A DNA stretch of 37,559 bases. Origin: an uncultured virus (IMG/VR IMGVR_UViG_3300001605_000013) (lineage: Duplodnaviria; Heunggongvirae; Uroviricota; Caudoviricetes). Positions within the stretch are counted from its first letter, which is position 1. The number at the start of each line of letters is the position of its first letter. The translations under genes and the position numbers were made by a program. The DNA lies in the IMG/VR virus record IMGVR_UViG_3300001605_000013, positions 62,001 to 99,559 of that record; one strand, written 5' to 3'. Below are positions 1,399 through 31,859 of this stretch, piece by piece. A model generated the notes under the pieces. That model saw nothing but the letters and a program-made list of their open reading frames with translations, was not told the origin of the DNA and searched no databases.

Positions 1399-1658
1399 TA
1401 TATACACCTAAAATGAAAAAAGAGGTTCACTCAGTTCCAGTCCCTGTTGATTTTGTTATGGATGTTGTAGAATATGAAATGTATCCACCATACATTGGGT
1501 TAAGATTCTATGAGAGTCATTGGAGACATCTAAACGATAATGAAAGACTTAAATGTATCTGGTATATGCAAAGAGTAAAGAACATTATCGAATCTCACGG
1601 AGTTTCCGTCACACTCGATCCAGTATATGACGTTCCTGGAGGACAAAAGCTAGGATGA
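1395..1658 (+). CDS. hypothetical protein
   Basis: ATGA overlap with whiB stop, GGAGG RBS. Confidence 0.75.
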   Translation: MIYTPKMKKEVHSVPVPVDFVMDVVEYEMYPPYIGLRFYESHWRHLNDNERLKCIWYMQRVKNIIESHGVSVTLDPVYDVPGGQKLG

Positions 1659-2611
1659 GTATTTTTATTTCCATTGCATCATACAAAGATACTGAATTAG
1701 TTCCAACAATAAAAAGCTTAATAAAAAATGCAGACAGACCACAAGATCTGTATTTTGGAATTGTTTCACAGGATGTCATTAGCAATCACCCAGATTTATC
1801 TTTTGTAAATAATCTATCATACTTAAAGATGGATTTTAGAGATGCCAGGGGTGCTGGATATGCAAGAAAGCTTGCAATGGAAATGTACAGAGAGGAAGAC
1901 TTTTACTTGCAGATAGACTCCCATATGCGATGCTCTGATGGATGGGATACAAAAATAAAAAACACATATCGTCAATCAGTTGAATTGTCAGGAACAGAAA
2001 AAATAATTCTCAGCCAATATCCAGCAGCATATGAAATACATACTGGAGGAAAAGAATATTTTATTCAGGAGCATGAAGAGCTGTGGAGCGAACCTACTTG
2101 GTCAAGGGTACATAATAGGGACAACGGATCGTGGTCATCTATAAGAGAAAGGTTTGATGATCTCTCTAGCCCACATCCATCACATACCGTTTTGGCTGGA
2201 TACCTATTTGCCCCTGGAATATTTGTAAAAGAAATACCATACGATGAAAGAATATCCTTTATGGGTGAAGAGTTGTGTATAGCTATAAGAGCATATACAA
2301 GGTATTGGAAGATTTATGCGCCAAATGAGATGTTGTTTTGGCACTTTTATAAAAGAAAGCAAAGCCCTAAAATCTGGAATCAAATTGAGGATATCAAGAG
2401 ACCTTTGAAATGGATAGAGATGGAGATGGAATCTAAGCGCATTCAAAAGAATATTCTTACAGGTAAAGAGCAGGGTACCTTTGGTGTAGGAGATTATGAT
2501 AAATATATTGAATATCAAAAACTTATTGGAATTAATTTTAATGAATTCTACAATGAAGAAATAAACAAAAAAGTTAATAAAAATGTAAACACACAAGAAA
2601 TTATATTTTAG
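1655..2611 (+). CDS. GT-A glycosyltransferase of the Skp1/Gnt1-like GlcNAc-transferase (GT60-like) type
   Basis: IFISIASYKD, RGAGYAR, LQIDSH, FMGEE motifs. Confidence 0.85.
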   Translation: MSIFISIASYKDTELVPTIKSLIKNADRPQDLYFGIVSQDVISNHPDLSFVNNLSYLKMDFRDARGAGYARKLAMEMYREEDFYLQIDSHMRCSDGWDTKIKNTYRQSVELSGTEKIILSQYPAAYEIHTGGKEYFIQEHEELWSEPTWSRVHNRDNGSWSSIRERFDDLSSPHPSHTVLAGYLFAPGIFVKEIPYDERISFMGEELCIAIRAYTRYWKIYAPNEMLFWHFYKRKQSPKIWNQIEDIKRPLKWIEMEMESKRIQKNILTGKEQGTFGVGDYDKYIEYQKLIGINFNEFYNEEINKKVNKNVNTQEIIF

Positions 2612-2619
2612 GAGAATCT

Positions 2620-2790
2620 ATGAAGGAACAAGAAGAAAGACTGCTAAGGGATCTAGAGAGTGCTGCTTCTGCTGTCCGTAGAGGCACTGGCGGAAAAGCA
2701 GGAGAGAGTTCAGAAAAGGTATATGGAATAGCATATGCTAAGTGTGTTCAAGCAGGGGTTAAGCCAAAGTTAAGAAATAAGTATAGATAG
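2620..2790 (+). CDS. small basic hypothetical protein (56 aa, not in ORF track)
   Basis: AGGAG RBS; MKEQEERLLRDLESAASAVRRG...KLRNKYR*. Confidence 0.7.
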   Translation: MKEQEERLLRDLESAASAVRRGTGGKAGESSEKVYGIAYAKCVQAGVKPKLRNKYR

Positions 2791-2876
2791 CTGTGACACA
2801 AATAACATACCTTTTAGTTGACTTTTAAACAAAAGTTTGATATTATTAACACATACCCCAAAAGGAGATGATATCT

Positions 2877-3041
2877 ATGAAGACACTTAAAGGTGCCTTT
2901 GAGAATATTTTCACAAAGAAGGTCAAAAGCCATCAGTGGAATGTTTATAAAGAATGGAATTATCAGAGATCTAAAGCCCTTGGTCCTAGCGACTTGGCAG
3001 AGATCGATGCTATCTTTTCTCGTCACATAAATTCTGTTTGA
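2877..3041 (+). CDS. small hypothetical protein (54 aa, not in ORF track)
   Basis: AAGGAG RBS, upstream TTGACT -35-like hexamer; MKTLKGAFENIF...AEIDAIFSRHINSV*. Confidence 0.7.
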   Translation: MKTLKGAFENIFTKKVKSHQWNVYKEWNYQRSKALGPSDLAEIDAIFSRHINSV

Positions 3042-3112
3042 TATTGACATATGTCCACTTTTAATGTAAAATTTAGGAGTGGACAAGTCATATCTATACA
3101 AAGGAGTGTTAA

Positions 3113-3292
3113 ATGTTAGATGCTAGGGGAATTGCAACAAGGGCGTGTCCCAATTGTGGATCTACCTTGTTTACAATCCAAGCCACATTTGATGAAGACT
3201 ACGAGGTTTCAGCATACTTTTTAGATGCAGAGTGTGCTATTTGTACAACAAGGGTGACCGCACCCACACCCCTAGATCTGTTGGAGACATAA
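3113..3292 (+). CDS. small zinc-ribbon protein (59 aa, not in ORF track)
   Basis: AAGGAG RBS; CPNC...CAIC. Confidence 0.75.
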   Translation: MLDARGIATRACPNCGSTLFTIQATFDEDYEVSAYFLDAECAICTTRVTAPTPLDLLET

Positions 3293-3522
3293 TGGAATTT
3301 TATGCAAAGATTACTTTTGTTAACAAGGGGATGTACAGGTGCTGTGCTACAGTATGGAAGTCAGATAATGGGATTGATAGCATTTGGAAGGTAAAGAAGT
3401 TTATAAGATCTGAATCAGCCTACCGATGGGCATCAAGAAATATAATAAAACAAGTATTTGAACAATCAGACTCCCTGTTCATAAAAGAACAGGATATTAT
3501 AAGGAGAAAATGGAATGACTAA
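3292..3522 (+). CDS. hypothetical protein
   Basis: TAATG coupling, GGAG RBS. Confidence 0.65.
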   Translation: MEFYAKITFVNKGMYRCCATVWKSDNGIDSIWKVKKFIRSESAYRWASRNIIKQVFEQSDSLFIKEQDIIRRKWND

Positions 3523-3700
3523 CGAAGATCTATTACAGAAGACACTAAACACAACAATAGAGCGTTTGGCTCGGCAAGCAATTAACTACGAGGCAGAGAT
3601 TGCCAATCTTAATTCTCAGATTTTTATTTTAAATAATAAAATTGAGGAATTGAGCAAGACTCATGCAGAAAAACAAACAAAACAAAACACTGAAAAATAA
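3515..3700 (+). CDS. small coiled-coil protein
   Basis: 61 aa with heptad pattern, AGGAG RBS. Confidence 0.7.
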   Translation: MTNEDLLQKTLNTTIERLARQAINYEAEIANLNSQIFILNNKIEELSKTHAEKQTKQNTEK

Positions 3701-3734
3701 TATTTATTTTAAGAAAATACTCAAAGGAGATTCA

Positions 3735-5366
3735 TTGAAAATTTTAGGAATAAGTCCAGCACACGACAGCAGCGCATGTCTCTATGAGGATGGAGAGATT
3801 GTCGCTTTTTATAAAGAAGAAAGGCTTTCAGGAAAAAAAAGAGACAAGTTTCCAATGCTTTCTGTTCAAAAAATTTTAAAAAACATAGACTACGTTGATT
3901 TGGTGGTTTACTGCGGTGTTGTAAAGCATGAATATGAGTTTAATTATTTTAAAATGGTTGTTAATAAATTTGTAAGATATGATAAAATTATAAATTTTTC
4001 TGATAATCATCATCTACAACACGCTAGTTTAGCATTTTATAACAGTGGCTTTGATAGCGCAGCAGCGATCATAATTGATCGAAATGGATCTATGCTTTTA
4101 AATTCATGTAGGGAGGCAGAGACTATCTATTCTGTTTCGTATCCAGCAAACTTTAAGGAGATATATAAAAGTCTTTGGGTTTTTGAAAATTCTGCTCATG
4201 CTGAAATTAAAATTCTTAATGAAAATGAAGAAGATGATTGCGAATATGAGGCTAAATCAATGTTTGGAATAGTTAAAGTTTATGAAACAGCAACTAACCT
4301 AATTGGTCAACATGTTCTTGAAAATGGAAAAACTATGGGCTTGTCTGCTTATGGAAACAAAAAAAATAAATCTATGGATCTGTTTGTAGATGGAACAAAT
4401 ATCCCCAGCGATTTCCACTTTGGTCATGATGAAAGTCTTGAAGCCATAAATTACCTTTTAGATAAATCAAAAACCTATAATGTTGATCCAAATAACTATC
4501 AGCTATATGCAGACTACGCTTGGCAAGTACAGAAACAAACACAAGAGGCCGTATCCTACTTGATAAGAAAAGCCGTAGATAAAACAGGTAACAAAAATAT
4601 CGTTATTTCTGGAGGATATGGACTTAATGTAGTAGCAAACAGATACTATATTGATAAATTCCCAGAATTAAACTTTTATTTTGAGCCACTAGCAGATGAT
4701 TCTGGAAACAGTATCGGAGGGGCTATGCTTTTCTACCATGAACAAACGCGAGATAAACAGATTCGTCCACTTAAAGACACTTTTTTTCACGGAGAGTCCT
4801 ATCAGATTGACAAAAAAAATGGAACTAAAGTAACCATTTCAGATATAGCAAATAATATTATGTCAAACAAGTCTGTTGCTTTATTTCATGGTAAGGCAGA
4901 AGCGGGTCCAAGGGCTTTAGGTCATAGATCAATTTTGTTTAATGCTATGAATAGCAATGCAAGGGATATTGTAAACAAAATTAAAATGCGTGAATGGTAT
5001 AGGCCATTTGCAGCGGCGGTATTGGAAGAAGATGCTGATCAGTATTTTGATATGGCAGGTATTGGGTCCCCATTTATGACCGTTTCTTTCCCCGTACTCG
5101 ATGGCGTTGCAAAAATGTTTAGCGGTGTCGTTCATGTAGATGGAACCTGTAGAATACAAACAGTAAACAAGGATGTGCCAATTCTTTATCAGCTTCTAAA
5201 AGAAATAAAAAAACTCAGCGGTCATGGTGTTGTTCTTAATACAAGCTTCAATCTTGCTGGAGAGCCATTGGTAGAAACACCAGATGATGCTATAAGGACT
5301 TTACAAAACTCTGAACTTGATGTATTATGGTTTCCTGAAGCAGAAATTGCAATTATCAAGGAGTAG
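3735..5366 (+). CDS. carbamoyltransferase, NodU/CmcH/TobZ family
   Basis: HDSSA, EERLSGKK, HHLQHA, GKTMGLSAYG, GGYGLN, GPRALGHRS, REWYRPFA, LNTSFN; TTG start after AAGGAG. Confidence 0.95.
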   Translation: MKILGISPAHDSSACLYEDGEIVAFYKEERLSGKKRDKFPMLSVQKILKNIDYVDLVVYCGVVKHEYEFNYFKMVVNKFVRYDKIINFSDNHHLQHASLAFYNSGFDSAAAIIIDRNGSMLLNSCREAETIYSVSYPANFKEIYKSLWVFENSAHAEIKILNENEEDDCEYEAKSMFGIVKVYETATNLIGQHVLENGKTMGLSAYGNKKNKSMDLFVDGTNIPSDFHFGHDESLEAINYLLDKSKTYNVDPNNYQLYADYAWQVQKQTQEAVSYLIRKAVDKTGNKNIVISGGYGLNVVANRYYIDKFPELNFYFEPLADDSGNSIGGAMLFYHEQTRDKQIRPLKDTFFHGESYQIDKKNGTKVTISDIANNIMSNKSVALFHGKAEAGPRALGHRSILFNAMNSNARDIVNKIKMREWYRPFAAAVLEEDADQYFDMAGIGSPFMTVSFPVLDGVAKMFSGVVHVDGTCRIQTVNKDVPILYQLLKEIKKLSGHGVVLNTSFNLAGEPLVETPDDAIRTLQNSELDVLWFPEAEIAIIKE

Positions 5367-5370
5367 TAAA

Positions 5371-5865
5371 ATGCAAACATTTGTTCCCTATGCAGATTTT
5401 AACCAATCTGCGTCTGTTCTAGACAACAAAAGATTAAATAAGCAGCTTTTAGAAGGTCGTCAGATTTACAAGATTATTTCTAGCAATCAAACAAAAGGTG
5501 CATGGGTAAATCATCCAGCAGTTAAGATGTGGCGCAACCATGACAATGGATTGTTTGCTTACCTAACTGGCATTCTTAAGGAATGCAACATTAGAGGCAT
5601 TGCAACAGAAAAAAACTGGAATGCTCTTTGTAAAATGCATGAATCAAATTGGAATCGTGGATCAAAAATAACCCTACCTCCTTGGTGGGGGGATAAAAGA
5701 GTTCACCAATCTCATCGTAATAATCTATATCGTAAAGATCCAGAATATTATTCTGAGTTTTCTCAAGATAAATTTATATCTTGTTGTGAAAAGTGTAATT
5801 ACTTTTGGCCTGTATCAAAACATGCCAAAGAATATACATCAGATCCAAATTGGTCTTATGTATAA
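5371..5865 (+). CDS. pyrimidine-dimer DNA glycosylase (DenV/MSMEG_6728-like)
   Basis: MQTFVPY, LDNKRLNKQLLE, HPAVKMW, PPWWG...HQSHRNNLYRKDP. Confidence 0.9.
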   Translation: MQTFVPYADFNQSASVLDNKRLNKQLLEGRQIYKIISSNQTKGAWVNHPAVKMWRNHDNGLFAYLTGILKECNIRGIATEKNWNALCKMHESNWNRGSKITLPPWWGDKRVHQSHRNNLYRKDPEYYSEFSQDKFISCCEKCNYFWPVSKHAKEYTSDPNWSYV

Positions 5866-5884
5866 AAGCATCTAACGATGTTTT

Positions 5885-5958
5885 GCGACAGTAACTCAAT
5901 TGGCTAGAGTTCCTGCCTTCCAAGCAGGGTGTTGTGGGTTCGAGTCCCATCTGTCGCT
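5885..5958 (+). tRNA. tRNA-Gly(TCC)
   Basis: Cloverleaf; anticodon arm CCTGC-CTTCCAA-GCAGG; GTTCGAG T loop. Confidence 0.93.
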
Positions 5959-5962
5959 CTAA

Positions 5963-6035
5963 CTGCATGTAGCTCAACGGATAGAGCAACAGGTTTCTAC
6001 CCTGTCGGTTGGGGGTTCGATTCCCTTCATGCAGA
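5963..6035 (+). tRNA. tRNA-Arg(TCT)
   Basis: Acceptor CTGCATG/CATGCAG; ACAGG-TTTCTAC-CCTGT. Confidence 0.93.
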
Positions 6036-6070
6036 CAATAAAAAAAATAAAAACAAATAGGAGAAAAAAA

Positions 6071-6433
6071 ATGATTAAGAAGTTAATTTCAGTTATTGCT
6101 ATTACAGCAGTTGCTTTTGTTTCAGTACCTGCAGCATCAGCATATCAATCAACAGCCATTGTATCTAAAGCCAGTGATTACAGCTCAAAAAAGAAAAATA
6201 AATTTTGGAGGGTGGCTGTTTCCTTGGAGCCTTCAGTAAAATATGCAAAGAAAAAAGATGTAATTGCCTTGGGAGTGTCAACCTGTGATCTTCTAAGGGC
6301 TGGCGGAGACATGGAAGACCTAGCACTAATTATCTATGAGGCCAATGCTGGATCTGGAGAAGATGCTCTAATTGCTATTGTTGCTTCTGCACCAGTAGTT
6401 CTTTGTACAGATCAACAATATAAGTTTAACTAG
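6071..6433 (+). CDS. secreted protein, DUF732-like
   Basis: Signal peptide ending AASA; ALGVSTCDLLRAG...APVVLC pattern. Confidence 0.65.
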   Translation: MIKKLISVIAITAVAFVSVPAASAYQSTAIVSKASDYSSKKKNKFWRVAVSLEPSVKYAKKKDVIALGVSTCDLLRAGGDMEDLALIIYEANAGSGEDALIAIVASAPVVLCTDQQYKFN

Positions 6434-6467
6434 TAAAAATTCCTAAGCATGAACCAAAACTGCTTAT

Positions 6468-6548
6468 GCTGGATATGCCCCAAGGTGGGGCAGCAGACTG
6501 TAAATCTGTCGCGGTAACGCATGGTTGGTTCGATTCCAACATCCAGCA
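6468..6548 (+). tRNA. tRNA-Tyr(GTA)
   Basis: Acceptor GCTGGAT/ATCCAGC; loop CTGTAAA; long variable arm. Confidence 0.9.
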
Positions 6549-6549
6549 C

Positions 6550-6578
6550 TTGACATATATCTTCGTAATAGATATAAT
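6550..6578 (+). promoter_or_regulatory. consensus sigma-70/SigA promoter
   Basis: TTGACA-17 bp-TATAAT. Confidence 0.85.
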
Positions 6579-6606
6579 ACTCTTAACAACAACAAAGGGA
6601 GATATA

Positions 6607-6843
6607 ATGGATACAATGTTAGAAGAAGTTCAGCAAGAAGAAACTGATCAACTTAATGCACATGACCGTTGTGACTCCTGTCATGCACAGGCATATGTGT
6701 GGGTAGAGGGTGTAAATGGAGATTTGCTTTTTTGTGGTCATCACTTTTCTAAGAATGAAGAAAAGATTCGTGCGTATGCTTTCGAGATAGTTGATGAAAG
6801 ACACAAACTAGAAGTAAAGCGTGAGTCTAGCGCAGCAATTTAA
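6607..6843 (+). CDS. small actinobacterial-type zinc-binding protein
   Basis: DRCDSC...LLFCGHH; GGGAG RBS. Confidence 0.8.
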   Translation: MDTMLEEVQQEETDQLNAHDRCDSCHAQAYVWVEGVNGDLLFCGHHFSKNEEKIRAYAFEIVDERHKLEVKRESSAAI

Positions 6844-6851
6844 CATTGCTC

Positions 6852-6926
6852 GCCTCAATAGCTCAGTGGTAGAGCACTCGCCTTGTAAGCGAGCGGTCAA
6901 CAGTTCAAATCTGTTTTGAGGCTCCA
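6852..6926 (+). tRNA. tRNA-Thr(TGT), CCA encoded
   Basis: Acceptor GCCTCAA/TTGAGGC; CTCGC-CTTGTAA-GCGAG. Confidence 0.95.
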
Positions 6927-6961
6927 TGATATAATTCTTTTATTAATTTAGATGGGAAATA

Positions 6962-7909
6962 ATGGCTAACATAGTTTTTTTGGGTAATTTCAGGGTAGAC
7001 TATTCTACAGAAAGCCATCATGCAAAAACTCTTCAATCTATGGGGCACAAAGTTATTCAGTTACAGGAAACAGAAGCAAAGAGTGAAGAAATTCTTTCTG
7101 CCGCCAAAAAATCAGATTTGTTTATTTGGACTCACACCCATGGATGGAACACGCCAGGAAGAACAAGCATGTCTAATGTATTAAAAGAATTAAAGACTAG
7201 CAATATTCCTACAATGACGTATCATCTTGATCTGTGGTTTGGTTTAAAAAGACAGAAGGATTTATCTTCTGATCCAGTGTATAAGGAGATTGGTCATTTT
7301 TTTACCGTTGACTCAAAGATGGCTGATTGGTTTAACAAAAAAACATCTGTCAAGGGGCACTACCTTCCTGCTGGGGTATACGATAAAGAGGCTACATATA
7401 AACCAGTAAAACAGTTTAAACAAGATGTAATATTTGTTGGAAGCAAAAGGTATCATCCTGAATGGAAATATCGTCCTCAAATAATTAATTGGTTATCTTC
7501 AGCATATGATAAAAAATTTCAACACTGGGGAAATGACGGTCTTGGAGTTGTTAGAGGAAAAAACTTAAACTCATTGTATGCAAGCACAAAGGTCGTTGTG
7601 GGAGACACGTTGTGCCCTAATTTTAATTATCCAGATTATTGGTCGGATAGAGTTTATGAAACTTTGGGCAGAGGAGGATTTATTATTCATCCCTATATTT
7701 CTGGAATGGAAAAAGAGTTTACCGATAAAGAACATTTAGTTTTTTATGAATACAAAAACTTTAAGCAGCTAAAAGAACTAATTGATTATTATTTAGTTCA
7801 TGATGAAGAAAGAGAAGCGATTAGGCTGGCTGGTCATAAACTGGTTAAAGAAAAATATACATACAGAAATAGATGGGAACATATACTCAAAGAACTGGGG
7901 GTATCGTAA
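6962..7909 (+). CDS. GT-B glycosyltransferase, CgeB-like
   Basis: DVIFVGS, YWSDRVYETLGRGGF, IDYYL..DEEREAIR.AG. Confidence 0.88.
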   Translation: MANIVFLGNFRVDYSTESHHAKTLQSMGHKVIQLQETEAKSEEILSAAKKSDLFIWTHTHGWNTPGRTSMSNVLKELKTSNIPTMTYHLDLWFGLKRQKDLSSDPVYKEIGHFFTVDSKMADWFNKKTSVKGHYLPAGVYDKEATYKPVKQFKQDVIFVGSKRYHPEWKYRPQIINWLSSAYDKKFQHWGNDGLGVVRGKNLNSLYASTKVVVGDTLCPNFNYPDYWSDRVYETLGRGGFIIHPYISGMEKEFTDKEHLVFYEYKNFKQLKELIDYYLVHDEEREAIRLAGHKLVKEKYTYRNRWEHILKELGVS

Positions 7910-8397
7910 TGAAATTTTTAGTCACTGGTCTTGAGTCAAGCTCTACAAAAATAGTGTCAAGGATGGTTGCACAAAATCTAAATTTAATAGATAATGTTGA
8001 TAGTTGGGACGGACATGATTTTGTTTTTGATGATAACAATTTAGTGGTTCATCGAAGCATTCCTCACGGTATTGACGATTACTTTGTCGATGATGAATTT
8101 ATTGAAGGATTTGATTTTATTGTTTTATGTACGAGAGATTGGAACTGCTCTCTTTTATCTAAAATAGAGTATCACGAACATAATGTTGTAAAGGCAAACC
8201 AACAACATGTGCAGGGTATTGAGGTAATAAAAAATATTTCAAACAAAAAGAAAACTTTTATATTTTCTGCAGAAACAGCCTTTCTGCTTCAAGAATCTTA
8301 TACTGTTCCCTTTCTAAAATCTATTGGTATAGACAATCCAAAGCACATTAACTTTGAAAACCCCAATAGAAAATACTTAAAAGAAATAGGGCTGTGA
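7909..8397 (+). CDS. hypothetical protein, possibly sulfotransferase/P-loop-like fold
   Basis: FLVTGLESSSTK and IVLCTRDW resemble PAPS-binding motifs; TAATG coupling. Confidence 0.5.
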   Translation: MKFLVTGLESSSTKIVSRMVAQNLNLIDNVDSWDGHDFVFDDNNLVVHRSIPHGIDDYFVDDEFIEGFDFIVLCTRDWNCSLLSKIEYHEHNVVKANQQHVQGIEVIKNISNKKKTFIFSAETAFLLQESYTVPFLKSIGIDNPKHINFENPNRKYLKEIGL

Positions 8398-8405
8398 TTC
8401 TTTAA

Positions 8406-9104
8406 ATGTATAATTCAGAAAATATAGATTACTTAGTATGCATTCCTGTTTATCAGGTCAATGATAGAACCAGGAGATGCATCTATTCCCTAGATAATTA
8501 CGACCAAGTTTTATTAATTGACAATAGTACAAAAAAAGATTGCAGAGAGTTTGAAAGTCTTGGGCTAGAAGTTTCTTATCAGGAAGAAAACATAGGTGTC
8601 CCTAGATCATGGAATATTGGATTAAAAAGAAATCATGAATGGACTTTTGTTGTTTCTAGTTCGATGTTATTTCCTAACGGATTTAAAAAAATAGCAAACA
8701 TGCTTGATGGATATCAAGGTCTCATGTTTAGAACAAGTCATGTATGGCACTGTAATGCAATAAATAAAAAGCTTGTTGAAAAAATAGGATACTTTGATGA
8801 AAATTTTTATCCAGGATATTTTGAAGACTGCGACTGGGATCATAGATGTGGAATAGAAAAAATAGATGAATACGGAAATATTTTAATAGATGCAGAATGT
8901 CAAATAGATGGTGGAGCAACAAGAGATGGATGCCAAGTAAACATTAATGGTGTTCATGATTACTTCAAACAAAAATGGGGAGGTAATAGGACAAGGGATG
9001 GGTGGGGATACTATCAAAATCCATTTGACAATCCAGATTTCCCCATCTCTTATTGGGAACAGAATAGTATAGAAGATTTAAAGAAGAGGTATAGTCTTTC
9101 ATGA
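8406..9104 (+). CDS. GT2-family glycosyltransferase
   Basis: LLIDNS, NIGVPRSWNIG, GYFDENFYPGYFEDCD. Confidence 0.88.
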   Translation: MYNSENIDYLVCIPVYQVNDRTRRCIYSLDNYDQVLLIDNSTKKDCREFESLGLEVSYQEENIGVPRSWNIGLKRNHEWTFVVSSSMLFPNGFKKIANMLDGYQGLMFRTSHVWHCNAINKKLVEKIGYFDENFYPGYFEDCDWDHRCGIEKIDEYGNILIDAECQIDGGATRDGCQVNINGVHDYFKQKWGGNRTRDGWGYYQNPFDNPDFPISYWEQNSIEDLKKRYSLS

Positions 9105-10138
9105 AGCTTGGAATAGTTGTAAGAGCAGATGATACTGGTCTTGGGAATCAGACACATGAATTAGTTAAGATGTTAAATCCAGAAAAGATTCTTATCATTG
9201 ATTCATCAACATTTCATAATAAGAACATGCAGCATTATGAGTGGTATGAGGGAAGGAACATAGTTGTTAGCAAAGGTTTTCCAGACAACAGTATTCTGTT
9301 AAAGTTTTTTGAAGGATTAAGAATTGTTATTAGTTGTGAAACATTTTATAACAAAAGATTTGTTGCCTTGGCAAGAAGAAAAAGAATAAAGACTATTCTT
9401 CAGTATAACTTTGAGTTCTTAGATTATCTGTCTAATGAAGATGCTATGCTCCCCGATGTCTTATTGGCTCCAAGCCTTTGGAGATTTGAGGAGGTAGAGG
9501 AAAGATTTTCAAGCAAGTGTTTAGTAAAATATCTTCCTCCACCAACAGATCAAAAGCTTTTTAGTAAGAACAAGAGGATCAATACAGAAAGAACAAACAA
9601 ACTTCTTCATATAGGAGGTAAGGCAGCAATATACGATAGAAATGGTACAAATAGTGTTGTTGACATGCTTAAATACTCTAAATCTGATTATGAGTTAGTT
9701 ATAAGAAGTCAAACAAATATTGATATAGATTCTTCTGATCCCAGGCTCACTATTTTGGTTGGTAATGAGAGCAATCACGAAGATATGTATCGTGGTTATG
9801 ATGCTATGATTCTTCCTAGAAGGTATGCTGGTCTATGTCTGCCCATGAATGAGGCATTAATAAGTGGTCTACCAGTATTTATGACAGACATATCACCAAA
9901 CAACCTGATTCTTCCTCAAAAATGGCTTTCAAAGAGTTATTTTGTTAAAGAGTTTATGACTAGAATTGGAGTGAACTTGTATGAGTCTGATCCAAAATCT
10001 TTAGCCAAAGTAGTTGACAGATATTTTTTACAGGATGACTTGTCTAATGATAAAAAAGAAGCTTTTAACATTGGATACAGCAATTTTTCTTCAAAAAAAC
10101 TTAAGGAACGATACATTGATTTAATCAACAGCCTATAG
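9101..10138 (+). CDS. GT-B (GT4-like) glycosyltransferase
   Basis: RADDTGLG; DAMILPRRYAGLCLPMNEALISGLPV. Confidence 0.88.
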   Translation: MKLGIVVRADDTGLGNQTHELVKMLNPEKILIIDSSTFHNKNMQHYEWYEGRNIVVSKGFPDNSILLKFFEGLRIVISCETFYNKRFVALARRKRIKTILQYNFEFLDYLSNEDAMLPDVLLAPSLWRFEEVEERFSSKCLVKYLPPPTDQKLFSKNKRINTERTNKLLHIGGKAAIYDRNGTNSVVDMLKYSKSDYELVIRSQTNIDIDSSDPRLTILVGNESNHEDMYRGYDAMILPRRYAGLCLPMNEALISGLPVFMTDISPNNLILPQKWLSKSYFVKEFMTRIGVNLYESDPKSLAKVVDRYFLQDDLSNDKKEAFNIGYSNFSSKKLKERYIDLINSL

Positions 10139-10154
10139 TATAATTTATACTCAA

Positions 10155-10226
10155 TGGCGCGTAGCTCAATGGCAGAGCAATCGACTGTTAATCGATGGGT
10201 TAAAGGTTCGAGTCCTTTCGTGCCAG
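10155..10226 (+). tRNA. tRNA-Asn(GTT)
   Basis: Acceptor TGGCGCG/CGTGCCA; ATCGA-CTGTTAA-TCGAT. Confidence 0.93.
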
Positions 10227-10246
10227 CAAAACAGAAGGGTAGATAA

Positions 10247-10771
10247 GTGTCACACAAAGAGCAAAGAGATTTTTTTGAAAAAATAAAAGATATATATCCA
10301 GAATATTTTAAAAATGTATCAGTTATAGAGCTAGGATCACTAAACATAAATGGAACGGTGAGAGATTTTTATGATGCCAACAGGTATGTGGGGGTTGATT
10401 TAGACAACGGTCCTGGTGTTGACTTGGTGTGTGCTGCCCAGGATGTTGATTTCCCAGATAATTCATTTGATATTGCGGTTAGTGCAGAATGTTTTGAACA
10501 CAACCCATATTGGAAAGAAACATTTTTAAATATGCACAGAATGGCAGATAAATTTGTTATCTTTACCTGTGCTAGTGATGGTAGGCCAGAACATGGAACA
10601 ACCAGAACTACTCCGAACAATAGCCCTTTTACTTTAAAGTGGGATTATTATTGTAATCTAAATGAACAAGACTTTCGATCAGAGTTTTACTTAGATAAAA
10701 TGTTTAAAAACTATGAGTTTGTTTATAATGAAAAGTCTTTCGATCTTTATTTTTGGGGTTTGGTTAAGTGA
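10247..10771 (+). CDS. class I SAM-dependent methyltransferase
   Basis: VIELGS, YVGVD, SFDIAVSAECFEH. Confidence 0.9.
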   Translation: MSHKEQRDFFEKIKDIYPEYFKNVSVIELGSLNINGTVRDFYDANRYVGVDLDNGPGVDLVCAAQDVDFPDNSFDIAVSAECFEHNPYWKETFLNMHRMADKFVIFTCASDGRPEHGTTRTTPNNSPFTLKWDYYCNLNEQDFRSEFYLDKMFKNYEFVYNEKSFDLYFWGLVK

Positions 10772-11856
10772 GCAAAAGATCTGTTGCATTTTTAACTATG
10801 GATTGGACAAAAACTACTCCCAAAGAAGCAAATGGTTGCGCTCATTATAGATGCTGTCTTCCATCAGCTGAGCTTAAAAAGTTTGGTTGGGATACAGAGG
10901 TAGAATATCCAGAATATAATCCAAAGTTTGGTTTTGGCTCAAACGCTGGAGATAAATTGGCAAATTATGGATGGGATATAGTTGTATTTAAGTTAATAAT
11001 GCTTAGATCAGTTGCAGAAATAATGGAAAATGCCAAGCCAAATCAAAAGGTAGTCGTTGATGTTGATGATTTTTATGAGGGGCTTCAGGAAACAAACCTT
11101 GCATATAAAAATACAGATCCAGAGGCTCACCCAGAAAATAACAGAGATCATTACTGGAAGATAATTGATTTAGCAGATGCAATAATAACATCTACTCAGT
11201 TCTTGTATGACTTCTACACAAAAGAAAAAGGAAAGACAAATGTATTTCTAGTTCGTAATGGAATAGATATTGATAGATGGAGAAGAAAGCAGGATTATTC
11301 TCGATACCTTCCTACTGTTGGCTGGGTAGGGGCTCTCCCTTGGAGATCAGGGGATCTAGAAACTCTTAGACCTTTTCTAGGAGAGTTTCTTGAAAAAAAT
11401 AGACTAACCTTTCATCATTCTGGTCATATAAAGGAAATGAATCTAGATATAACTGATCTATCAAACATTCCTAAATCAGTTAAGTTTACCCATGAACCAA
11501 GAAAGATTATTAGCCAGTATCCACAAATGTTTAGGAAGATTGATATTGGTCTAGTTCCTCTTAATAATCTTCCCTTTAATCATGCCAAGTCAACGATAAA
11601 GGGTTTAGAATATACCGCTGCAGGGGTTCCATTTATTTCATCATATAGCCCAGAATATGAGCTTTTAACAAGTGAAGGTGTGGGCAGGGTTGCATACAAT
11701 AAAGATGATTGGATTAGGCATTTGACGGAACTACAAGATCCCAAAGTACGAAAAGACGACATAGAGAAAAATTATGAAAATGTAAAAAAAATGCATACCA
11801 TGGAAGTTCGTGGAAAAGATTGGGACAAAACCCTTACAGATATACTTGACATATAA
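10768..11856 (+). CDS. GT-B glycosyltransferase
   Basis: GCAHYRC, VVDVDD, VGWVG, DIGLVPL..LPFNHAKSTIKGLEY. Confidence 0.88.
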   Translation: MSKRSVAFLTMDWTKTTPKEANGCAHYRCCLPSAELKKFGWDTEVEYPEYNPKFGFGSNAGDKLANYGWDIVVFKLIMLRSVAEIMENAKPNQKVVVDVDDFYEGLQETNLAYKNTDPEAHPENNRDHYWKIIDLADAIITSTQFLYDFYTKEKGKTNVFLVRNGIDIDRWRRKQDYSRYLPTVGWVGALPWRSGDLETLRPFLGEFLEKNRLTFHHSGHIKEMNLDITDLSNIPKSVKFTHEPRKIISQYPQMFRKIDIGLVPLNNLPFNHAKSTIKGLEYTAAGVPFISSYSPEYELLTSEGVGRVAYNKDDWIRHLTELQDPKVRKDDIEKNYENVKKMHTMEVRGKDWDKTLTDILDI

Positions 11857-11912
11857 AAAAGTTTTCTGTATAATAATTATACGGAAACTGGCGCAAGAGT
11901 TATGGAGAAAAA

Positions 11913-12080
11913 ATGGGACGGCAGAGGAAGGTAAAAGATCTTACAACACCAATCCCTACACCAGAAAGACAACTAAATGGTCCTAGTGGCTTTTGCATTA
12001 CGGGACATCACGGAACATGCAAGTATCAATTTAACCATGGCAAATGTGGATGCAAATGCCATAAATCGAGAGGAATATAA
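11913..12080 (+). CDS. small Cys/His-rich protein (55 aa, not in ORF track)
   Basis: GGAG RBS; GFCITGHHGTC...CGCKCH. Confidence 0.7.
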   Translation: MGRQRKVKDLTTPIPTPERQLNGPSGFCITGHHGTCKYQFNHGKCGCKCHKSRGI

Positions 12081-12457
12081 TGTCTAAATCAAAATTTGGA
12101 GGAAGCAATCTCTACATGACTACCCGTGAGTTTGCTGATCTTGTTGTTACTGCCCTTGAAGATCAAAATTATTTTAGAAGTACAGATCCCTGTCATCCCC
12201 AGGATATTGCACAGGCATTTGTTACGGTTGGGGAGACTATTGGTTCTGCTATGGCTTGGGCGATCAAGGAAGAGCATGAGGCCAAGAATAAGATAAAGGA
12301 AGCCGTTATGAAAGCTGGAGATCTATCCAAGAATATTTCTGGATCTTGGTCAAGTGCATCTTCTTCCTCAGAACATAGGTATGCTCTACCCATTGATGAA
12401 GAAATTTCTCCACAAGAAAGTGGATACTCAGAGTGGAAGCTGAAGGGATATCTATAA
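12080..12457 (+). CDS. hypothetical protein
   Basis: 125 aa, GAGG RBS, TAATG coupling. Confidence 0.75.
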   Translation: MSKSKFGGSNLYMTTREFADLVVTALEDQNYFRSTDPCHPQDIAQAFVTVGETIGSAMAWAIKEEHEAKNKIKEAVMKAGDLSKNISGSWSSASSSSEHRYALPIDEEISPQESGYSEWKLKGYL

Positions 12458-12522
12458 TGGTAAAGATGAAAGACTTATACTTGATTCATGGAATTGAGAA
12501 TATTGACGAGGATGATGACTGA

Positions 12523-12756
12523 ATGAATCCAGATCAACCACAGTTTGAGAAGTATTGGCGTAAGAGGATTGCCGAAGAAACAAAGATCAATAACAAAGAA
12601 ATTGATTTTTACGATTGGGTAAATTTTGGAAAAGATATGGGATGGTGTTCGGATATTGTCTGTGATACCCACGATGGCTTGCCCATGACTGATGAAGAAA
12701 TGGAAGGCTGGGAATTTGGTAATGATGAATGTGTTCCTGCCATTAGGGTTTGGTAA
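12523..12756 (+). CDS. hypothetical phage protein
   Basis: 77 aa, GWCSDIVCDTHDGLP. Confidence 0.75.
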   Translation: MNPDQPQFEKYWRKRIAEETKINNKEIDFYDWVNFGKDMGWCSDIVCDTHDGLPMTDEEMEGWEFGNDECVPAIRVW

Positions 12757-12935
12757 TGCCAACATACTCGTATCAGTGTAATTCTTGTGGCATGATGGAT
12801 ATTCATCAGAGTATCCATGACGGTATTCTAACTAGATGTCCGACATGCAACTCAAGGCAATTCACTAAAAAGATTAGCCTTGCTAATATTCAATTTAAAG
12901 GTAGTGGATTTTATTCAACAGATTCAAAAGGTTAG
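12756..12935 (+). CDS. FmdB-family zinc-ribbon protein
   Basis: MPTYSYQC..C...CPTC...FKGSGFYSTD. Confidence 0.9.
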   Translation: MPTYSYQCNSCGMMDIHQSIHDGILTRCPTCNSRQFTKKISLANIQFKGSGFYSTDSKG

Positions 12936-12949
12936 TGATACAATAAATT

Positions 12950-13822
12950 ATGCTTGGAATGCATTTTAATGATCCACTAGACTCCCCCCCGAAAACTGAT
13001 TGGGTAAGACTTTGGGATTGTGGAGTAACTTGGAAAGATATACATATTGGACCAAACAATTATGATTGGTCAAGATTAGACTATCTAGTAAATCTTTATT
13101 CCGACAGGAATATTTTATACGTCTTTGCTGCAACCCCTAGATGGTTAGCAAAAGATCCTGATGCTCCACACTTTGCTCCCTGGCTTGGACCAGGATCTAA
13201 CTCGTTGCCATATGATATTGATGAATGGAATAAGTTTGTTTGGATGGTATCAAAAAGATATGCTGGAAGAATTAATGCATATGAAATATGGAATGAACCA
13301 CAATTAGCAGACTTTATGTATCCATATGATACTAAAAACATAAATACTTTAGTCACCATGACAAAGAGAGCCTATAACACCATTAAATCTAATGATAGGA
13401 AGGCCATGGTTGTATCAGCATCAGTTTTGCCAAGACTTTCTAGTGGTGGAATGAAAAGAGCTGAGAGATACCTTAAATCTTTAAAAAAGGGTGGTTGGAC
13501 GGTAGATAGGGTATCATGTCACATCTACCCAGAAGTGGGTATGGGGGCTGCATCTTGGTATTCTTATTTGCAGGATGTAAGGAATTCTGTTAATAGACTT
13601 AAGGGTCCTAGATTAATTTGGGTAACAGAAACAAACTATAATCTCTTGGGAAGCATCCTCGATCCAATATCTTCTGAACGCTTAGTTAGAGATACATATC
13701 GATATGCAGGTAATTCTCCAATATTTTGGTATGGTTGGGGTAAAGATGATATCCTGGGTGGTCTGATCATTAAGGAAAATTCTGCGGCTTGGAAAGAAAT
13801 GCAGAAACATCTTGACAGATAG
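12950..13822 (+). CDS. clan GH-A glycoside hydrolase (GH5/GH39-like)
   Basis: VRLWD, YEIWNEP acid/base and IWVTE nucleophile motifs. Confidence 0.88.
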   Translation: MLGMHFNDPLDSPPKTDWVRLWDCGVTWKDIHIGPNNYDWSRLDYLVNLYSDRNILYVFAATPRWLAKDPDAPHFAPWLGPGSNSLPYDIDEWNKFVWMVSKRYAGRINAYEIWNEPQLADFMYPYDTKNINTLVTMTKRAYNTIKSNDRKAMVVSASVLPRLSSGGMKRAERYLKSLKKGGWTVDRVSCHIYPEVGMGAASWYSYLQDVRNSVNRLKGPRLIWVTETNYNLLGSILDPISSERLVRDTYRYAGNSPIFWYGWGKDDILGGLIIKENSAAWKEMQKHLDR

Positions 13823-26667: not shown

Positions 26668-26828
26668 GTGATTTTCCAATCTCTAGTAGTTGATGTGATA
26701 ACAGTATCAGAATAAGGAAGCATTGTCAATAGATAAATAAGAAAACTAGAGGTATTTTGGTGTGGTCTTAATCACATCGTAAAAGCTTGACAAAAGTGAA
26801 AAAACGGGCCGGGCCCAAAAATTGAGAG

Positions 26829-26874
26829 TCCCCCTAGGGAGCAAGGGTGGGGGGTATGCTCAACCTAGAGGGAC
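26829..26874 (-). terminator. long GC-rich hairpin after tRNA-Asp (terminator or processing stem)
   Basis: GTCCCTCTAGG...CCTAGGGGGAC; only a weak U tail. Confidence 0.5.
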
Positions 26875-26876
26875 AG

Positions 26877-26949
26877 CGATTCTGATGGGATTCGAACCCA
26901 CGACCTCCACCGTGACAGGGTGGCGAGCACTCCGCTGCTCTACAGAACC
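26877..26949 (-). tRNA. tRNA-Asp(GTC), copy 1
   Basis: CCACC-CTGTCAC-GGTGG; acceptor GGTTCTG/CAGAATC. Confidence 0.93.
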
Positions 26950-27006
26950 ATTGTATTATTTTTTATGTAGCACAGGATCTCATGAGTCCTCTCCTTTCAC
27001 TACTCG

Positions 27007-27074
27007 CACCTCGTCTAGGAATTGAACCTAGCAAGACAAGTTTTGGAGGCTCGTCTGTACCCAGTACCCAAGGC
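27007..27074 (-). tRNA. atypical tRNA-Trp(CCA) with reduced D arm
   Basis: T arm CTAGG-TTCAATT-CCTAG, loop CTCCAAA, acceptor GCCTTG/CGAGGT, 68 nt. Confidence 0.65.
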
Positions 27075-27176
27075 TAGAATGTGAAGGTATCTAGGCTTAC
27101 TCCTTCACAATTGACTTGCAGCGAGACAAAACATTTTTTGCCATATCTCTATTATGTTAGTACACTAGACTGCAAG

Positions 27177-27257
27177 TGGGGAAGCGAGTCGAACGCATGA
27201 ATCCCTGATTCACACTTGCCGCAGCCCAATGGCTTTGTCTAGGTCGCATATCCCCAA
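27177..27257 (-). ncRNA. T-loop-containing structured RNA with no recognisable anticodon arm
   Basis: TGGGGA/TCCCCA closing stem, AGCC/GGCT and TGAATC/GATTCA hairpins, GCG-TTCGACT-CGC. Confidence 0.55.
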
Positions 27258-27290
27258 GTCACTATTTAGTTAGAGTTTTATTTTACCAGA

Positions 27291-27437
27291 CTACTTGACG
27301 GTAGTCCAGCGAGTGCCGTTGTCAGTCATCAGACGCAGACGGACGGAACCCGAAGGATTCTGGACGATCTCCTCAATCGTTCCCTGCACACCGCTCTTGA
27401 GGGTGGTGAACTGTGAGCCAACAGTGAGTGTAGACAT
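27291..27437 (-). CDS. 48-aa beta-rich protein (not in ORF track)
   Basis: MSTLTVGSQFTTLKSGVQGTIEEI...RWTTVK*; GAAAGGAAG RBS; TTGACA-18-TAAGGT promoter at ~27477-27506. Confidence 0.8.
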   Translation of the reverse strand: MSTLTVGSQFTTLKSGVQGTIEEIVQNPSGSVRLRLMTDNGTRWTTVK

Positions 27438-27533
27438 TTTGCTTCCTTTCGATTGTTTGTTTGTTGTTATGGTAGAACCTTATCAGATAGGTGGGGTACT
27501 TGTCAAGGACTTTCCCCCACCGTTATCAAATTG

Positions 27534-30753: not shown

Positions 30754-31154
30754 TAGTCCTCCTGATTATCTAGAGCATGATCAATGGTGTCAATAACGTG
30801 ATCAAAGTATGCGAACTTCTCGCTATCCCTTGCGTCTGTCAGGATCATGATAACAGTATCCCAATCTGATCGGGGCATAGAAACTTTTACCATTAGAATG
30901 GAACCTCCACAAATTGTGTTTTACCAATATACAGTGTGCCATCATTGGCATGAAATACCTTGGATTGATCGAAGGCATTTTCCTCAAAGGTTAGATAAAT
31001 ATCTAGCCAAGCGTGCTCAAAGTCATTTGACATTTTCATTTCGATTCCTCTCGACATAGTGGCCAATGCAATGGCCGTGGGGTTGGATTCTCTCGCCAGT
31101 TCTGGCATGTTTCGCATGTTTTCATGGTTTCACCTTAGCATAGGGGTCTGACAT

Positions 31155-31230
31155 TGGCGACCCTGATGGGATTCGAACCCACGACCTCCACCGTGACAGG
31201 GTGGCGAGCACTCCGCTGCTCTACAGGGCC
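31155..31230 (-). tRNA. tRNA-Asp(GTC), copy 2, CCA encoded
   Basis: Same body as copy 1; acceptor GGCCCTG/CAGGGTC. Confidence 0.95.
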
Positions 31231-31237
31231 AAGGTAC

Positions 31238-31438
31238 TTAGCGGCAAGGTTGCTGCCAAGCGTTCCAACTACCGATCTCACAATCGATGCAACGGTAGCA
31301 GTCATCAACTACACCAATACGGTGTGAGGCATCATTAGCCTGACGAACACTTTCAGGGATAGCCTGAAGGCGAGGCTTTTCGATAGTCTGATACCATTCT
31401 CCGTAGGAGAGGTGCATGTATTCCATTCGATTTGTCAT
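31238..31438 (-). CDS. small Cys-containing protein
   Basis: 66 aa, CYRCIDC; GAAAGG RBS behind a box promoter. Confidence 0.75.
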   Translation of the reverse strand: MTNRMEYMHLSYGEWYQTIEKPRLQAIPESVRQANDASHRIGVVDDCYRCIDCEIGSWNAWQQPCR

Positions 31439-31488
31439 TTTTCTAACCTTTCTTTCTATGCCCTAAGGCTATCATAGGGGTCTGACAT

Positions 31489-31635
31489 TTACACCAAGGA
31501 TAGGTGCTTGCCAGACTCTCCGATAGTTTGTACATCAAGCACACGCCCAAAGAATGTGGGGTGCTCGGTTGGGTCACCTTCGGTTTCTACACGCACGGTC
31601 TGACCATTGGTAAGTTTTACGAGGTAAACGAACAT
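31489..31635 (-). CDS. 48-aa protein, paralog A
   Basis: MFVYLVKLTNGQTVRVETEGDPTEHPTFFGRVLDVQTIGESGKHLSLV*. Confidence 0.85.
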   Translation of the reverse strand: MFVYLVKLTNGQTVRVETEGDPTEHPTFFGRVLDVQTIGESGKHLSLV

Positions 31636-31667
31636 TTTATTTCCTAACTTTTCGTTTCTTTCTATGT

Positions 31668-31859
31668 CTAAAGCCTAGCACGGGGGTCTGACATTGGGGG
31701 GTAGATTTGTTCAGAAACAATGCGCTCACGCCAGATAGTTCTGTGCTCTGGCTCGATATGTCCCCGCTCATGTACTCGTGCATATTCTGCCTTCTCAAGC
31801 GTGTCATATGAAGCCGCAAAGTCTCCGTCAAGAGAAACAAAGTAGGTCCATTTATTCAT
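31668..31859 (-). CDS. small leaderless hypothetical protein
   Basis: TAGGAT-6 bp-ATG; 63 aa. Confidence 0.7.
   Translation of the reverse strand: MNKWTYFVSLDGDFAASYDTLEKAEYARVHERGHIEPEHRTIWRERIVSEQIYPPMSDPRARL

Follow-up and report, generated by a model that had tools for sequence, protein, structure and literature searches.

A conserved, modular RNA operon in an uncultivated phage, with an undescribed leader motif and a reduced tRNA-Trp

The minus strand of a 37,559-nucleotide (nt) stretch of DNA from an uncultured virus of the Caudoviricetes (the window; bases 62,001-99,559 of the 99,559-bp IMG/VR record IMGVR_UViG_3300001605_000013, with an estimated completeness of 92%) contains a locus that comparison with relatives identifies as a conserved, modular RNA operon. 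In it an undescribed leader motif, here named EL1, is followed by a tRNA-Trp(CCA) with a reduced D arm and by a canonical tRNA-Asp. The predicted untranslated precursor carries, in this order, a leader of about 15 nt, EL1, two structured modules (H2 and H3), tRNA-Trp(CCA), tRNA-Asp(GUC), a hairpin with a C-rich loop and a terminator, and its predicted helices are retained across relatives by compensatory changes. The locus is best explained as an early-region RNA unit of an uncultivated phage of about 100 kb. With regard to function, it is tentatively proposed, with a confidence that stops a little short of even, that this is a processed phage RNA operon in which the EL1 leader is a cis-acting site for a conserved factor.

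All features listed in an earlier sequence-only reading of the window were found where it had placed them on the minus strand, and while that observation was confirmed, the interpretation attached to it was supported in part. The proposal of a compact polycistronic RNA unit is sustained by its make-up, with promoter(s) at one end, a terminator at the other, and two tRNAs as well as structured modules of other kinds between them, and that of an undescribed RNA holds for the non-tRNA part: the Rfam 15 covariance models gave only tRNA matches in the window and in five relatives, and none for EL1, H2, H3 or the 3' hairpin. Nor do the relatives reveal a decayed standard tRNA with unconserved stems, as the stems are kept with compensatory changes. 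The operon region sits within a block of small minus-strand genes, as seen in the map of open reading frames (ORFs) of the window, and comprises the following features.

27477-27506, minus strand: promoter upstream of the 48-amino-acid ORF; TTGACA (27506-27501), 18 nt, TAAGGT (27482-27477), with TGA just 5' of the -10
27291-27437, minus strand: 48-amino-acid ORF, a small conserved phage protein
27280-27308, minus strand: promoter of the RNA operon; TGGACT, 17 nt, TGg-TAAAAT, an extended -10, listed by the promoter scan
27257-27273, minus strand: single-stranded 5' leader (..AACUAAAUAGUGAC.), conserved in alignments of close relatives
27177-27256, minus strand: EL1 leader motif, a bulged hairpin, which is the "T-loop RNA" of about 80 nt of the sequence-only reading
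27114-27177, minus strand: H2, two inner hairpins enclosed by a closing helix of 8-9 bp; only some relatives have it
27080-27109, minus strand: H3, a hairpin whose loop (..AAGCCUAGAUA..) is invariant and whose stem covaries freely
27006/27007-27074, minus strand: reduced-D-arm tRNA-Trp(CCA), from ARAGORN -ps and covariation in relatives
26974-26990, minus strand: spacer hairpin AGGA-CUCAUGAGA-UCCU, read from the sequence
26876-26949, minus strand: canonical tRNA-Asp(GTC), from ARAGORN and Rfam
26828-26874, minus strand: 3' hairpin with a conserved C-rich loop (..CCCCCCACCC..)
26796-26817, minus strand: intrinsic terminator GGGCCCGGCCC plus T-run, hairpin at 26817-26805, from the terminator scan

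The core of EL1 reads GGA-UAU-GCGACC ... CGAC-UCGC-U-UCC and encloses an apical insert of 6-135 nt. In the window copy, helix P1 (UGGGGA/UCCCCA) pairs 27256-27251 with 27182-27177, a UAU bulge (27250-27248) stands opposite a single U (27183), helix P2 (GCGA/UCGC) pairs 27247-27244 with 27187-27184, and the variable insert (27241-27192) is bordered by CC (27243-27242) and CGAC (27191-27188). The outer part of P1 varies in sequence and length (UGGGGA/UCCCCA, UUAGGA/UCCUAA, ..CCGGA/UCCGG.., GGGGGAGGA/UCCUCCCCC), the extension beyond GGA/UCC amounting to 3-11 pairs in the genome matches and to 13 pairs in L206, where the alignment was read by eye. P2 appears in some sequences as GUGA/UCAC, with a G-U intermediate (GUGA/UCGC) in three, and the 3' core after the apex follows (A)YCGAC. 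Short apical inserts are often hairpins with a UUCG or GAAA cap; across relatives the 80-nt element keeps its two ends, its middle being replaced.

Scanning IMG/VR with the 5' core gave 71 loci, eight of them with a matching 3' core (the remaining 63 were rejected as chance), a metagenome scan gave 102 loci, 34 with the 3' partner, and a two-part pattern contributed further contigs. The resulting family consists of 49 distinct rows, 48 of which are credible, row L202 having been judged a chance match and excluded. When the 48 versions were placed on the covariance model, 97.9% of cells were paired and four pairs were changed on both sides (20 cells), with 0 of 500 shuffles as good, and sliding of the partner strand, used as a control, lowered pairing to 45-59%. 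Covariance model R1 scored the window EL1 at 52.5 bits, with one copy in the genome, and produced 51 matches and none in five control loci. In these alignments about 24 core nucleotides (the top of P1, the UAU/U bulge, P2 and CC...CGAC) are invariant and the outer stem and apex are free, an invariance that is partly due to ascertainment as the search patterns fixed part of the core; in a scan that left GGA/UCC free, seven of seven contigs still had GGA/UCC, which lifts the ascertainment for GGA/UCC only.

EL1 segments span 41%-78% GC across phage contigs, and one copy was present in each genome checked, including G005, whose long-insert EL1 was missed by the genome-wide R1 search and reached 48.7 bits when cmsearch was run on the locus. 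BLAST of a GC-rich EL1 against 50,697 cultured-phage records, like that of the whole region and of the 17.5-kb flank, gave tRNA matches or noise only (E about 2), and EL1 was not found there at this sensitivity. Scanning the prokaryotes with one genome for each species yielded 32 matches, of which three look real; the other 29 were attributed to chance, having no P1 extension or CGAC core. A full-text literature search with motif strings returned, in the portions of text retrieved, only unrelated papers, apparently with primers, and a general search on phage tRNA leaders gave nothing specific. On this comparative evidence, EL1 is a widespread single-copy phage motif that matches no described RNA family.

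The UUCG and GAAA caps and the G-U intermediates suggest an element that works at the RNA level rather than a DNA site. A DNA-level role, as a pac site or an origin, was set aside on these grounds together with the constant orientation with respect to the promoter and the mid-genome position in G005, which is bounded by direct terminal repeats. Folding energy alone is not unusual for either the window EL1 (z = -1.13, 24 of 200 shuffles as good) or the tRNA-Trp (z = -0.87, 43 of 200); the reality of the element at 27256-27177 and of the tRNA rests on conservation and covariation.

For the 80-nt element, mimicry of a tRNA, likeness to Y RNA and conformational switching had been put forward, a view that is already contradicted by the comparative data and is hardly tenable. 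The window copy does hold a T-arm-like GCG-UUCGACU-CGC, and the reported alternative pairings of CTAGAC with GTCTAG and of GCAAGTG with CACTTGC downstream do exist in the window; however, the T-arm look arises from the invariant ..CGACUCGC joined to an insert of the window and L007 only (2 of 49 rows), one partner of each alternative pairing lies in the same non-conserved insert, and the smallest EL1 forms, of 35 nt, have no T arm. As both the T-arm look and the alternative pairings are limited to one insert variant, the mimic and switch interpretations fall. Moreover, EL1 was not called by ARAGORN in its tRNA, intron or tmRNA modes (-m gives 0 genes), and Rfam gave no tRNA, Y_RNA or tmRNA match for it, the tmRNA match being an 11-nt fragment (6.7 bits) at 27018-27028 within the tRNA-Trp. 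For the Y-RNA likeness, a TROVE search that was positive in control genomes gave no match in the phage genome, which therefore offers no TROVE/Ro gene.

The claim of an atypical tRNA-Trp, on the other hand, was upheld by a relaxed ARAGORN call and by a covarying cloverleaf. This tRNA was not called by ARAGORN at default settings and gave no match to Rfam RF00005 at E<=10; at the 95% threshold (-ps) it is the sole additional ARAGORN call on the whole 99.6-kb genome, and several of its relatives are missed even by -ps (the -ps80 and mitochondrial modes gave 40 and 26 calls, respectively, mostly noise, and were not used). In common with canonical tRNA-Trp (RF00005) it has a four-arm cloverleaf, a 7-nt anticodon loop (CU-CCA-AA, with U33), a canonical T loop (T arm CUAGG-UUCAAUU-CCUAG), a G discriminator after an acceptor stem of seven pairs, and a position in a tRNA operon or array. 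In contrast with the canonical form, residues 8/9 linking the acceptor and D stems are absent, so that the D stem (GUAC/GUAC, 4 bp) directly follows the acceptor stem, the D loop is reduced to UGG (3 nt) where the standard core has 7-11 nt, the anticodon stem is lengthened to 7-8 pairs so that the variable loop has 2-4 nt, and positions 7:66 (G.A) and 31:39 (C.A) are mismatched. Across relatives the T loop is UUCAAUU, UUCGAUU or UUCGACU, which fits UUCRAnY.

In 12 distinct sequences, including that of Acinetobacter phage Mithridates, the four helices of the cloverleaf are retained via compensatory change: 90.6% of cells are paired over 24 pairs, nine pairs are changed on both sides, three of the four D-stem pairs covary, and 0 of 500 shuffles were as good. 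The two mismatches are likewise kept in 11 of the 12. Matches to this tRNA were detected in 15 Acinetobacter phage records (about 83% identity over 55-63 nt); Mithridates (L001) and AM24 (L245) carry an identical reduced gene, unannotated, between two tRNA-Met genes of a tRNA array, and the CCA end is encoded solely in the Acinetobacter phage copies. In three related records (H13, H18 and H21) a "hypothetical protein" is annotated over the reduced gene.

Some relatives (L127, L130, L135 and L137) hold a normal-sized tRNA-Trp of 72-73 nt in the same operon slot, and for this reason the reduced form is best read as a derived tRNA-Trp. ARAGORN found no other tRNA-Trp in the whole genome of the window phage. 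The parts of the literature on non-canonical phage tRNAs that were consulted contain nothing on this form. In the passages drawn on here, phage tRNAs with altered anticodon-arm features have been proposed to sustain translation when host tRNAs are attacked (PMC10264068). By analogy, a reduced tRNA-Trp with a conserved 31:39 mismatch would fit the defence-evasion logic of the tRNAs described in those passages, with the difference that its change is architectural, in the D arm, and not in the anticodon loop alone. This is a conserved and covarying tRNA that is nevertheless invisible to default tRNA finders; if the reading is correct, phage tRNA inventories may be under-counted and the structural limits of bacterial tRNA function may be wider. 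To our knowledge, no nuclease directed against tRNA-Trp has been described for the hosts of these phages.

The two stems that had been noted between EL1 and the tRNAs, at 27113-27177 and 27080-27109, likewise covary in relatives. The H2 closing stem ACTTGCAG/CTGCAAGT (27177-27170 with 27121-27114) is replaced in relatives by ACTTGTAG/CTACAAGT, and the H3 stem TGTGAAGG/CCTTCACA (27109-27102 with 27087-27080) by GAAAAGG/CCTTTTC, both changes being compensatory. RNAalifold on six sequences gave 29 pairs, eight with compensatory change; in H2 the closing helix shows C-G changed to U-A and four pairs of an inner hairpin are changed on both sides, and the H3 stems differ among the six around a constant AAGCCUAGAUA loop. 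The stretch covering H2 and H3 folds with z = -4.13 (0 of 200 shuffles as good). The long hairpin reported downstream of tRNA-Asp (26874-26828) is also far better folded than its shuffles (z = -4.54, 0 of 200), and its homologues, 20 distinct after two of 22 listed rows were judged to be chance, change in the stem and keep the C-rich loop constant. At the place of the spacer hairpin L007 has AGAU/AUCU, an observation on two sequences only. For the operon as a whole, the description "almost fully paired" proved to be loose wording: over 501 nt the fold reaches z = -2.59, with 3 of 100 shuffles as good.

Relatives with the same operon were recovered in three IMG/VR contigs with a pattern derived from the tRNA-Trp core; in the 50,697 cultured-phage records BLAST found nothing close to the locus, the whole region plus a 17.5-kb flank giving tRNA matches or noise only. 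In comparison with L013, the EL1 3' core and H2 are 94.8% identical over 77 nt and the tRNA-Trp and tRNA-Asp are 98.5% and 98.6% identical, whereas the 48-amino-acid ORF aligns in blastn over 35 nt only (83%). Judged from this comparison, the RNA is more strongly constrained across relatives than the gene preceding it. If the reading of the locus is right, it shows phage tRNA operons to be equipped with RNA modules that can be exchanged: H2/H3, H4, the hairpin with the C-rich loop and the inserts at the EL1 apex.

In most contexts a sigma-70 -10 element precedes EL1 by about 26 nt. In 32 of 50 distinct contexts it is an extended -10 (TGnTAnnnT) whose end is 25-29 nt away from GGAUAUG and which often has TGGACA/T 17 nt further upstream; a perfect TATAAT is present in seven more. 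Among 36 distinct contexts of the window type, tRNA-Asp(GTC) lies downstream in 30 and a Trp(CCA) gene in 19; most of them have a hairpin spacer of about 32 nt (H4) before the first tRNA, H2/H3 occurring in a subset only. In four GC-rich contigs (L198, L204, L206 and L207) EL1 heads mRNAs right after TATAAT promoters, a few bases from the inferred start, and what follows it is a ribosome-binding site with its gene instead of a tRNA. The genes downstream of these mRNA-type copies include L5-gp82-like and phrog_7971 proteins, and another phrog_7971 gene is located 600 nt upstream of EL1 in the window, so that these distant phages share an early-region neighbourhood. Searches of the EL1 neighbours with Pfam and PHROGs gave no function, returning only DUF932, DUF7178 and L5 gp82-like.

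Based on the promoter-proximal, single-copy position, the sequence-specific internal loops and the freely variable apex, it can be hypothesized that EL1, in cis on the nascent transcript, would offer a conserved factor a place to dock by sequence-specific recognition, RNA polymerase, an elongation or termination factor, or a conserved RNA-binding protein being candidates for this factor. Docking would keep the untranslated operon, or an early mRNA in other phages, transcribed or stable, following a logic similar to that of nut, put or TAR. Host RNase P and 3' processing enzymes would release the two tRNAs, and the reduced tRNA-Trp would be a working, or at least selected, Trp-type tRNA that, in the course of infection, supplies tRNA-Trp or stands in for that of the host. 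H2/H3 and the 3' hairpin would represent optional cargo modules of the same leader system. If this is correct, phages would control or protect an early transcript in an undescribed manner through a conserved cellular partner, with a motif of about 24 invariant nucleotides that spans very different phages, from AT-rich ones of about 100 kb to a provirus in the GC-rich Spongiactinospora, an actinomycete genus.

Several observations weigh against this proposal, in addition to the ordinary folding energy of the window EL1 and the part-ascertained core. Ten of the 50 contexts have no -10 at the usual distance, and L133 has a dubious -10-like word just 9 nt upstream of EL1. In the Spongiactinospora provirus (L200/L211/L232) convergent genes flank EL1 and no promoter is visible, a misfit with a strictly promoter-proximal role. 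No protein partner co-occurring with EL1 was found, phrog_7971 adjoining it in three of six genomes (G000, G001 and G002; it was not found in G003-G005). The window operon is short and contains no obvious internal terminator to override. Lastly, positions of the tertiary core (8, 9 and the greater part of the D loop) are missing from the tRNA-Trp, which in addition has conserved mismatches at 7:66 and 31:39.

Among the closest known parallels are the put and nut sites. As described in the parts of the source used here, put RNA is about 70 nt long with two stem-loops in a V shape, and HK022 putL lies directly behind PL (PMC9378689). According to the same passages, the HK022 put sites (putL and putR) and the lambdoid nut sites are cis-acting folded RNAs behind early promoters, present in 1-2 copies per genome, that act on the transcribing complex. 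EL1 resembles them in its promoter-proximal position, as the -10 elements of the 32 and seven contexts attest, in its low copy number and in having sequence-specific loops in a covarying helix. Unlike put, it is a single bulged hairpin with a minimum of 35 nt, bears no sequence likeness that could be seen, and has one copy, that of Spongiactinospora, not located behind a promoter. Because put, as described in those passages, has two stem-loops in about 70 nt and EL1 is one bulged hairpin, EL1 is not a member of the put family. A bolder version of the proposal, in which EL1 would be a 35-nt nascent-RNA antitermination element binding the host elongation machinery, a second and far more widespread put-like class, and the reduced tRNA-Trp would be fully functional in translation, a bacterial-type tRNA able to work with a 3-nt D loop and no residues 8/9, is considered decidedly unlikely.

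A different comparison is offered by the large RNAs GOLLD and ROOL, which are found near tRNAs. The EL1 operon is similar to these and to tRNA-array leaders in that structured RNA modules stand beside phage tRNA genes and are inherited in a mosaic fashion, and it differs from GOLLD/ROOL in that EL1 is tiny and also heads mRNAs. In the window neither family gave a match at the Rfam gathering score or at E<=10.

Metatranscriptome contigs give a hint of expression. In two small metatranscriptome runs of one study (X15 and X16) one contig each covers 27094/27102-27272 with 98-99% identity, beginning close to the inferred start and extending across EL1 and H2 (lengths 182 and 328 nt), and in another run the short EL1 of a relative is joined to tRNA-Asp and the 3' hairpin on one contig; being contigs, these attest presence in RNA libraries and not RNA ends, with DNA carry-over possible, which limits the support they lend to the proposal. 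Run X17 and parts of X10 left portions of the stretch uncovered, and such gaps were taken as no evidence. That two contigs span just EL1 and H2 is also what would be expected if EL1, with or without H2/H3 and the 3' hairpin, were freed by tRNA processing as a stable trans-acting small RNA that, like an external-transcribed-spacer sRNA, serves as sponge or decoy towards a nuclease, a defence sensor or an RNA-binding protein of the host. The leader would be set free when RNase P cuts at the first tRNA, the loops of H3 (invariant) and of the 3' hairpin (C-rich) resemble interaction surfaces, L016 has EL1-H2-H3 with no tRNA and with its own U-run hairpin, and the Spongiactinospora copy is not behind a promoter. 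Nevertheless, in L204, L206 and L207 neither a processing site nor a terminator separates EL1 from the ribosome-binding site and gene that directly follow it, the fixed promoter spacing would not be needed for action in trans, and there is no known target, making this a possible but rather unlikely account.

It could also be argued that the non-tRNA hairpins are mere processing or stability signals of the pre-tRNA (RNase P/E/III sites or protective hairpins) with no specific partner. Hairpin-rich spacers are common in phage tRNA arrays, the modules come, go and change places from one relative to another, and the operons of most relatives have no H2/H3. Generic hairpins would not, however, hold about 24 invariant nucleotides across EL1 segments of such different GC content, EL1 heads mRNAs too, and in the window type the single-stranded 5' leader of about 15 nt before P1 would afford poor protection of the 5' end, so this explanation is regarded as quite improbable. 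The same invariant internal loops between covarying helices, with a free apex, have the usual look of an aptamer, and in L008, L100, L102 and L134 a downstream hairpin has a GGGGA strand able to compete with P1, as in a small riboswitch-like element gating early or tRNA transcription on a host metabolite. Across contexts there is, though, no conserved expression platform (neither a shared terminator nor one sequestering the Shine-Dalgarno sequence), tRNA genes would be an unusual cargo and no Rfam riboswitch matches, and this possibility is deemed highly unlikely. The cis docking site is retained as the preferred, tentative reading.

Transcription of the operon would depend on a predicted host-type promoter in the end of the 48-amino-acid gene, with a second promoter upstream of the gene. 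The former, which was missing from the list of the sequence-only reading, lies inside the 3' end of the ORF, and in the window type its -35 falls in the conserved Arg-Trp-Thr-Thr codons ending the gene; the transcription start is inferred to be near 27273. The upstream TTGACA-18-TAAGGT promoter is present as it had been described and its layout is repeated in relatives L003-L005; its -10 fits the consensus at three of six positions, a weakness that explains why the consensus promoter scan did not list it. A hairpin GGTGGGGG/CCCCACC (27521-27490, minus strand) encloses the -35 of this promoter and is kept, with a longer stem, in L003-L005; the G-rich arm of this hairpin and the C-rich loop at the 3' end of the operon are complementary in sequence. 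The ORF itself is a real gene, as had been supposed, with 56% protein identity to relatives. A search with the protein retrieved 14 loci, eight with the RNA operon downstream and six with other genes; it gave no Pfam or PHROG match, and the ORF is absent from the GC-rich EL1 contexts.

Further modules were observed among the relatives. H4 consists of AUCCU, a covarying stem of 5-6 bp and a loop UGAUnnnAAAC; it forms the spacer of about 32 nt between EL1 and the first tRNA in L100, L103, L122, L126, L083 and L183, and, followed by a U-run, it ends the operon in L016, L109 and L137. The window has no H4. A module resembling a three-way junction, GGGGCCGAAUAGGACUCA..GGCAGGUAGUUGUGAnAACUACCCCC, is common to L006, where it is free upstream of EL1, and L012, where it lies inside the EL1 apex (1671-1838), and L006 and L016 share a further upstream module; these shared modules of L006, L012 and L016 gave no Rfam match. 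Directly after the operon terminator, at 26760-26796 on the minus strand, the conserved non-coding word TTTGTCAAGCyTTTAmGATGTGaTTaAGAmCAC is kept in L007, L100, L103, L122, L126, L130, L159 and L199, and it may be the promoter or operator of the downstream DUF932 gene.

The tRNA-Asp of the operon is present as reported (ARAGORN; Rfam tRNA, 59.9 bits). A second tRNA-Asp(GTC), at 31155-31230 on the minus strand, lies directly behind a coding sequence and has no EL1 leader, and at 30950-31700 a promoter-like word, AATGTCAGACCCCnnTGnTAnnnT, recurs at the head of each of the small minus-strand genes. The tRNA set of the phage comprises Gly, Arg(TCT), Tyr, Thr, Asn, Met, two Asp and the reduced Trp. 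Of the four tRNAs that have QUN anticodons, a group known as a target of anticodon nucleases, this set thus includes three (Tyr, Asn and Asp). Five plus-strand tRNA genes are interleaved, at 1655-13822 on the plus strand, with a cluster of glycosyltransferase-like genes and a carbamoyltransferase (Pfam).

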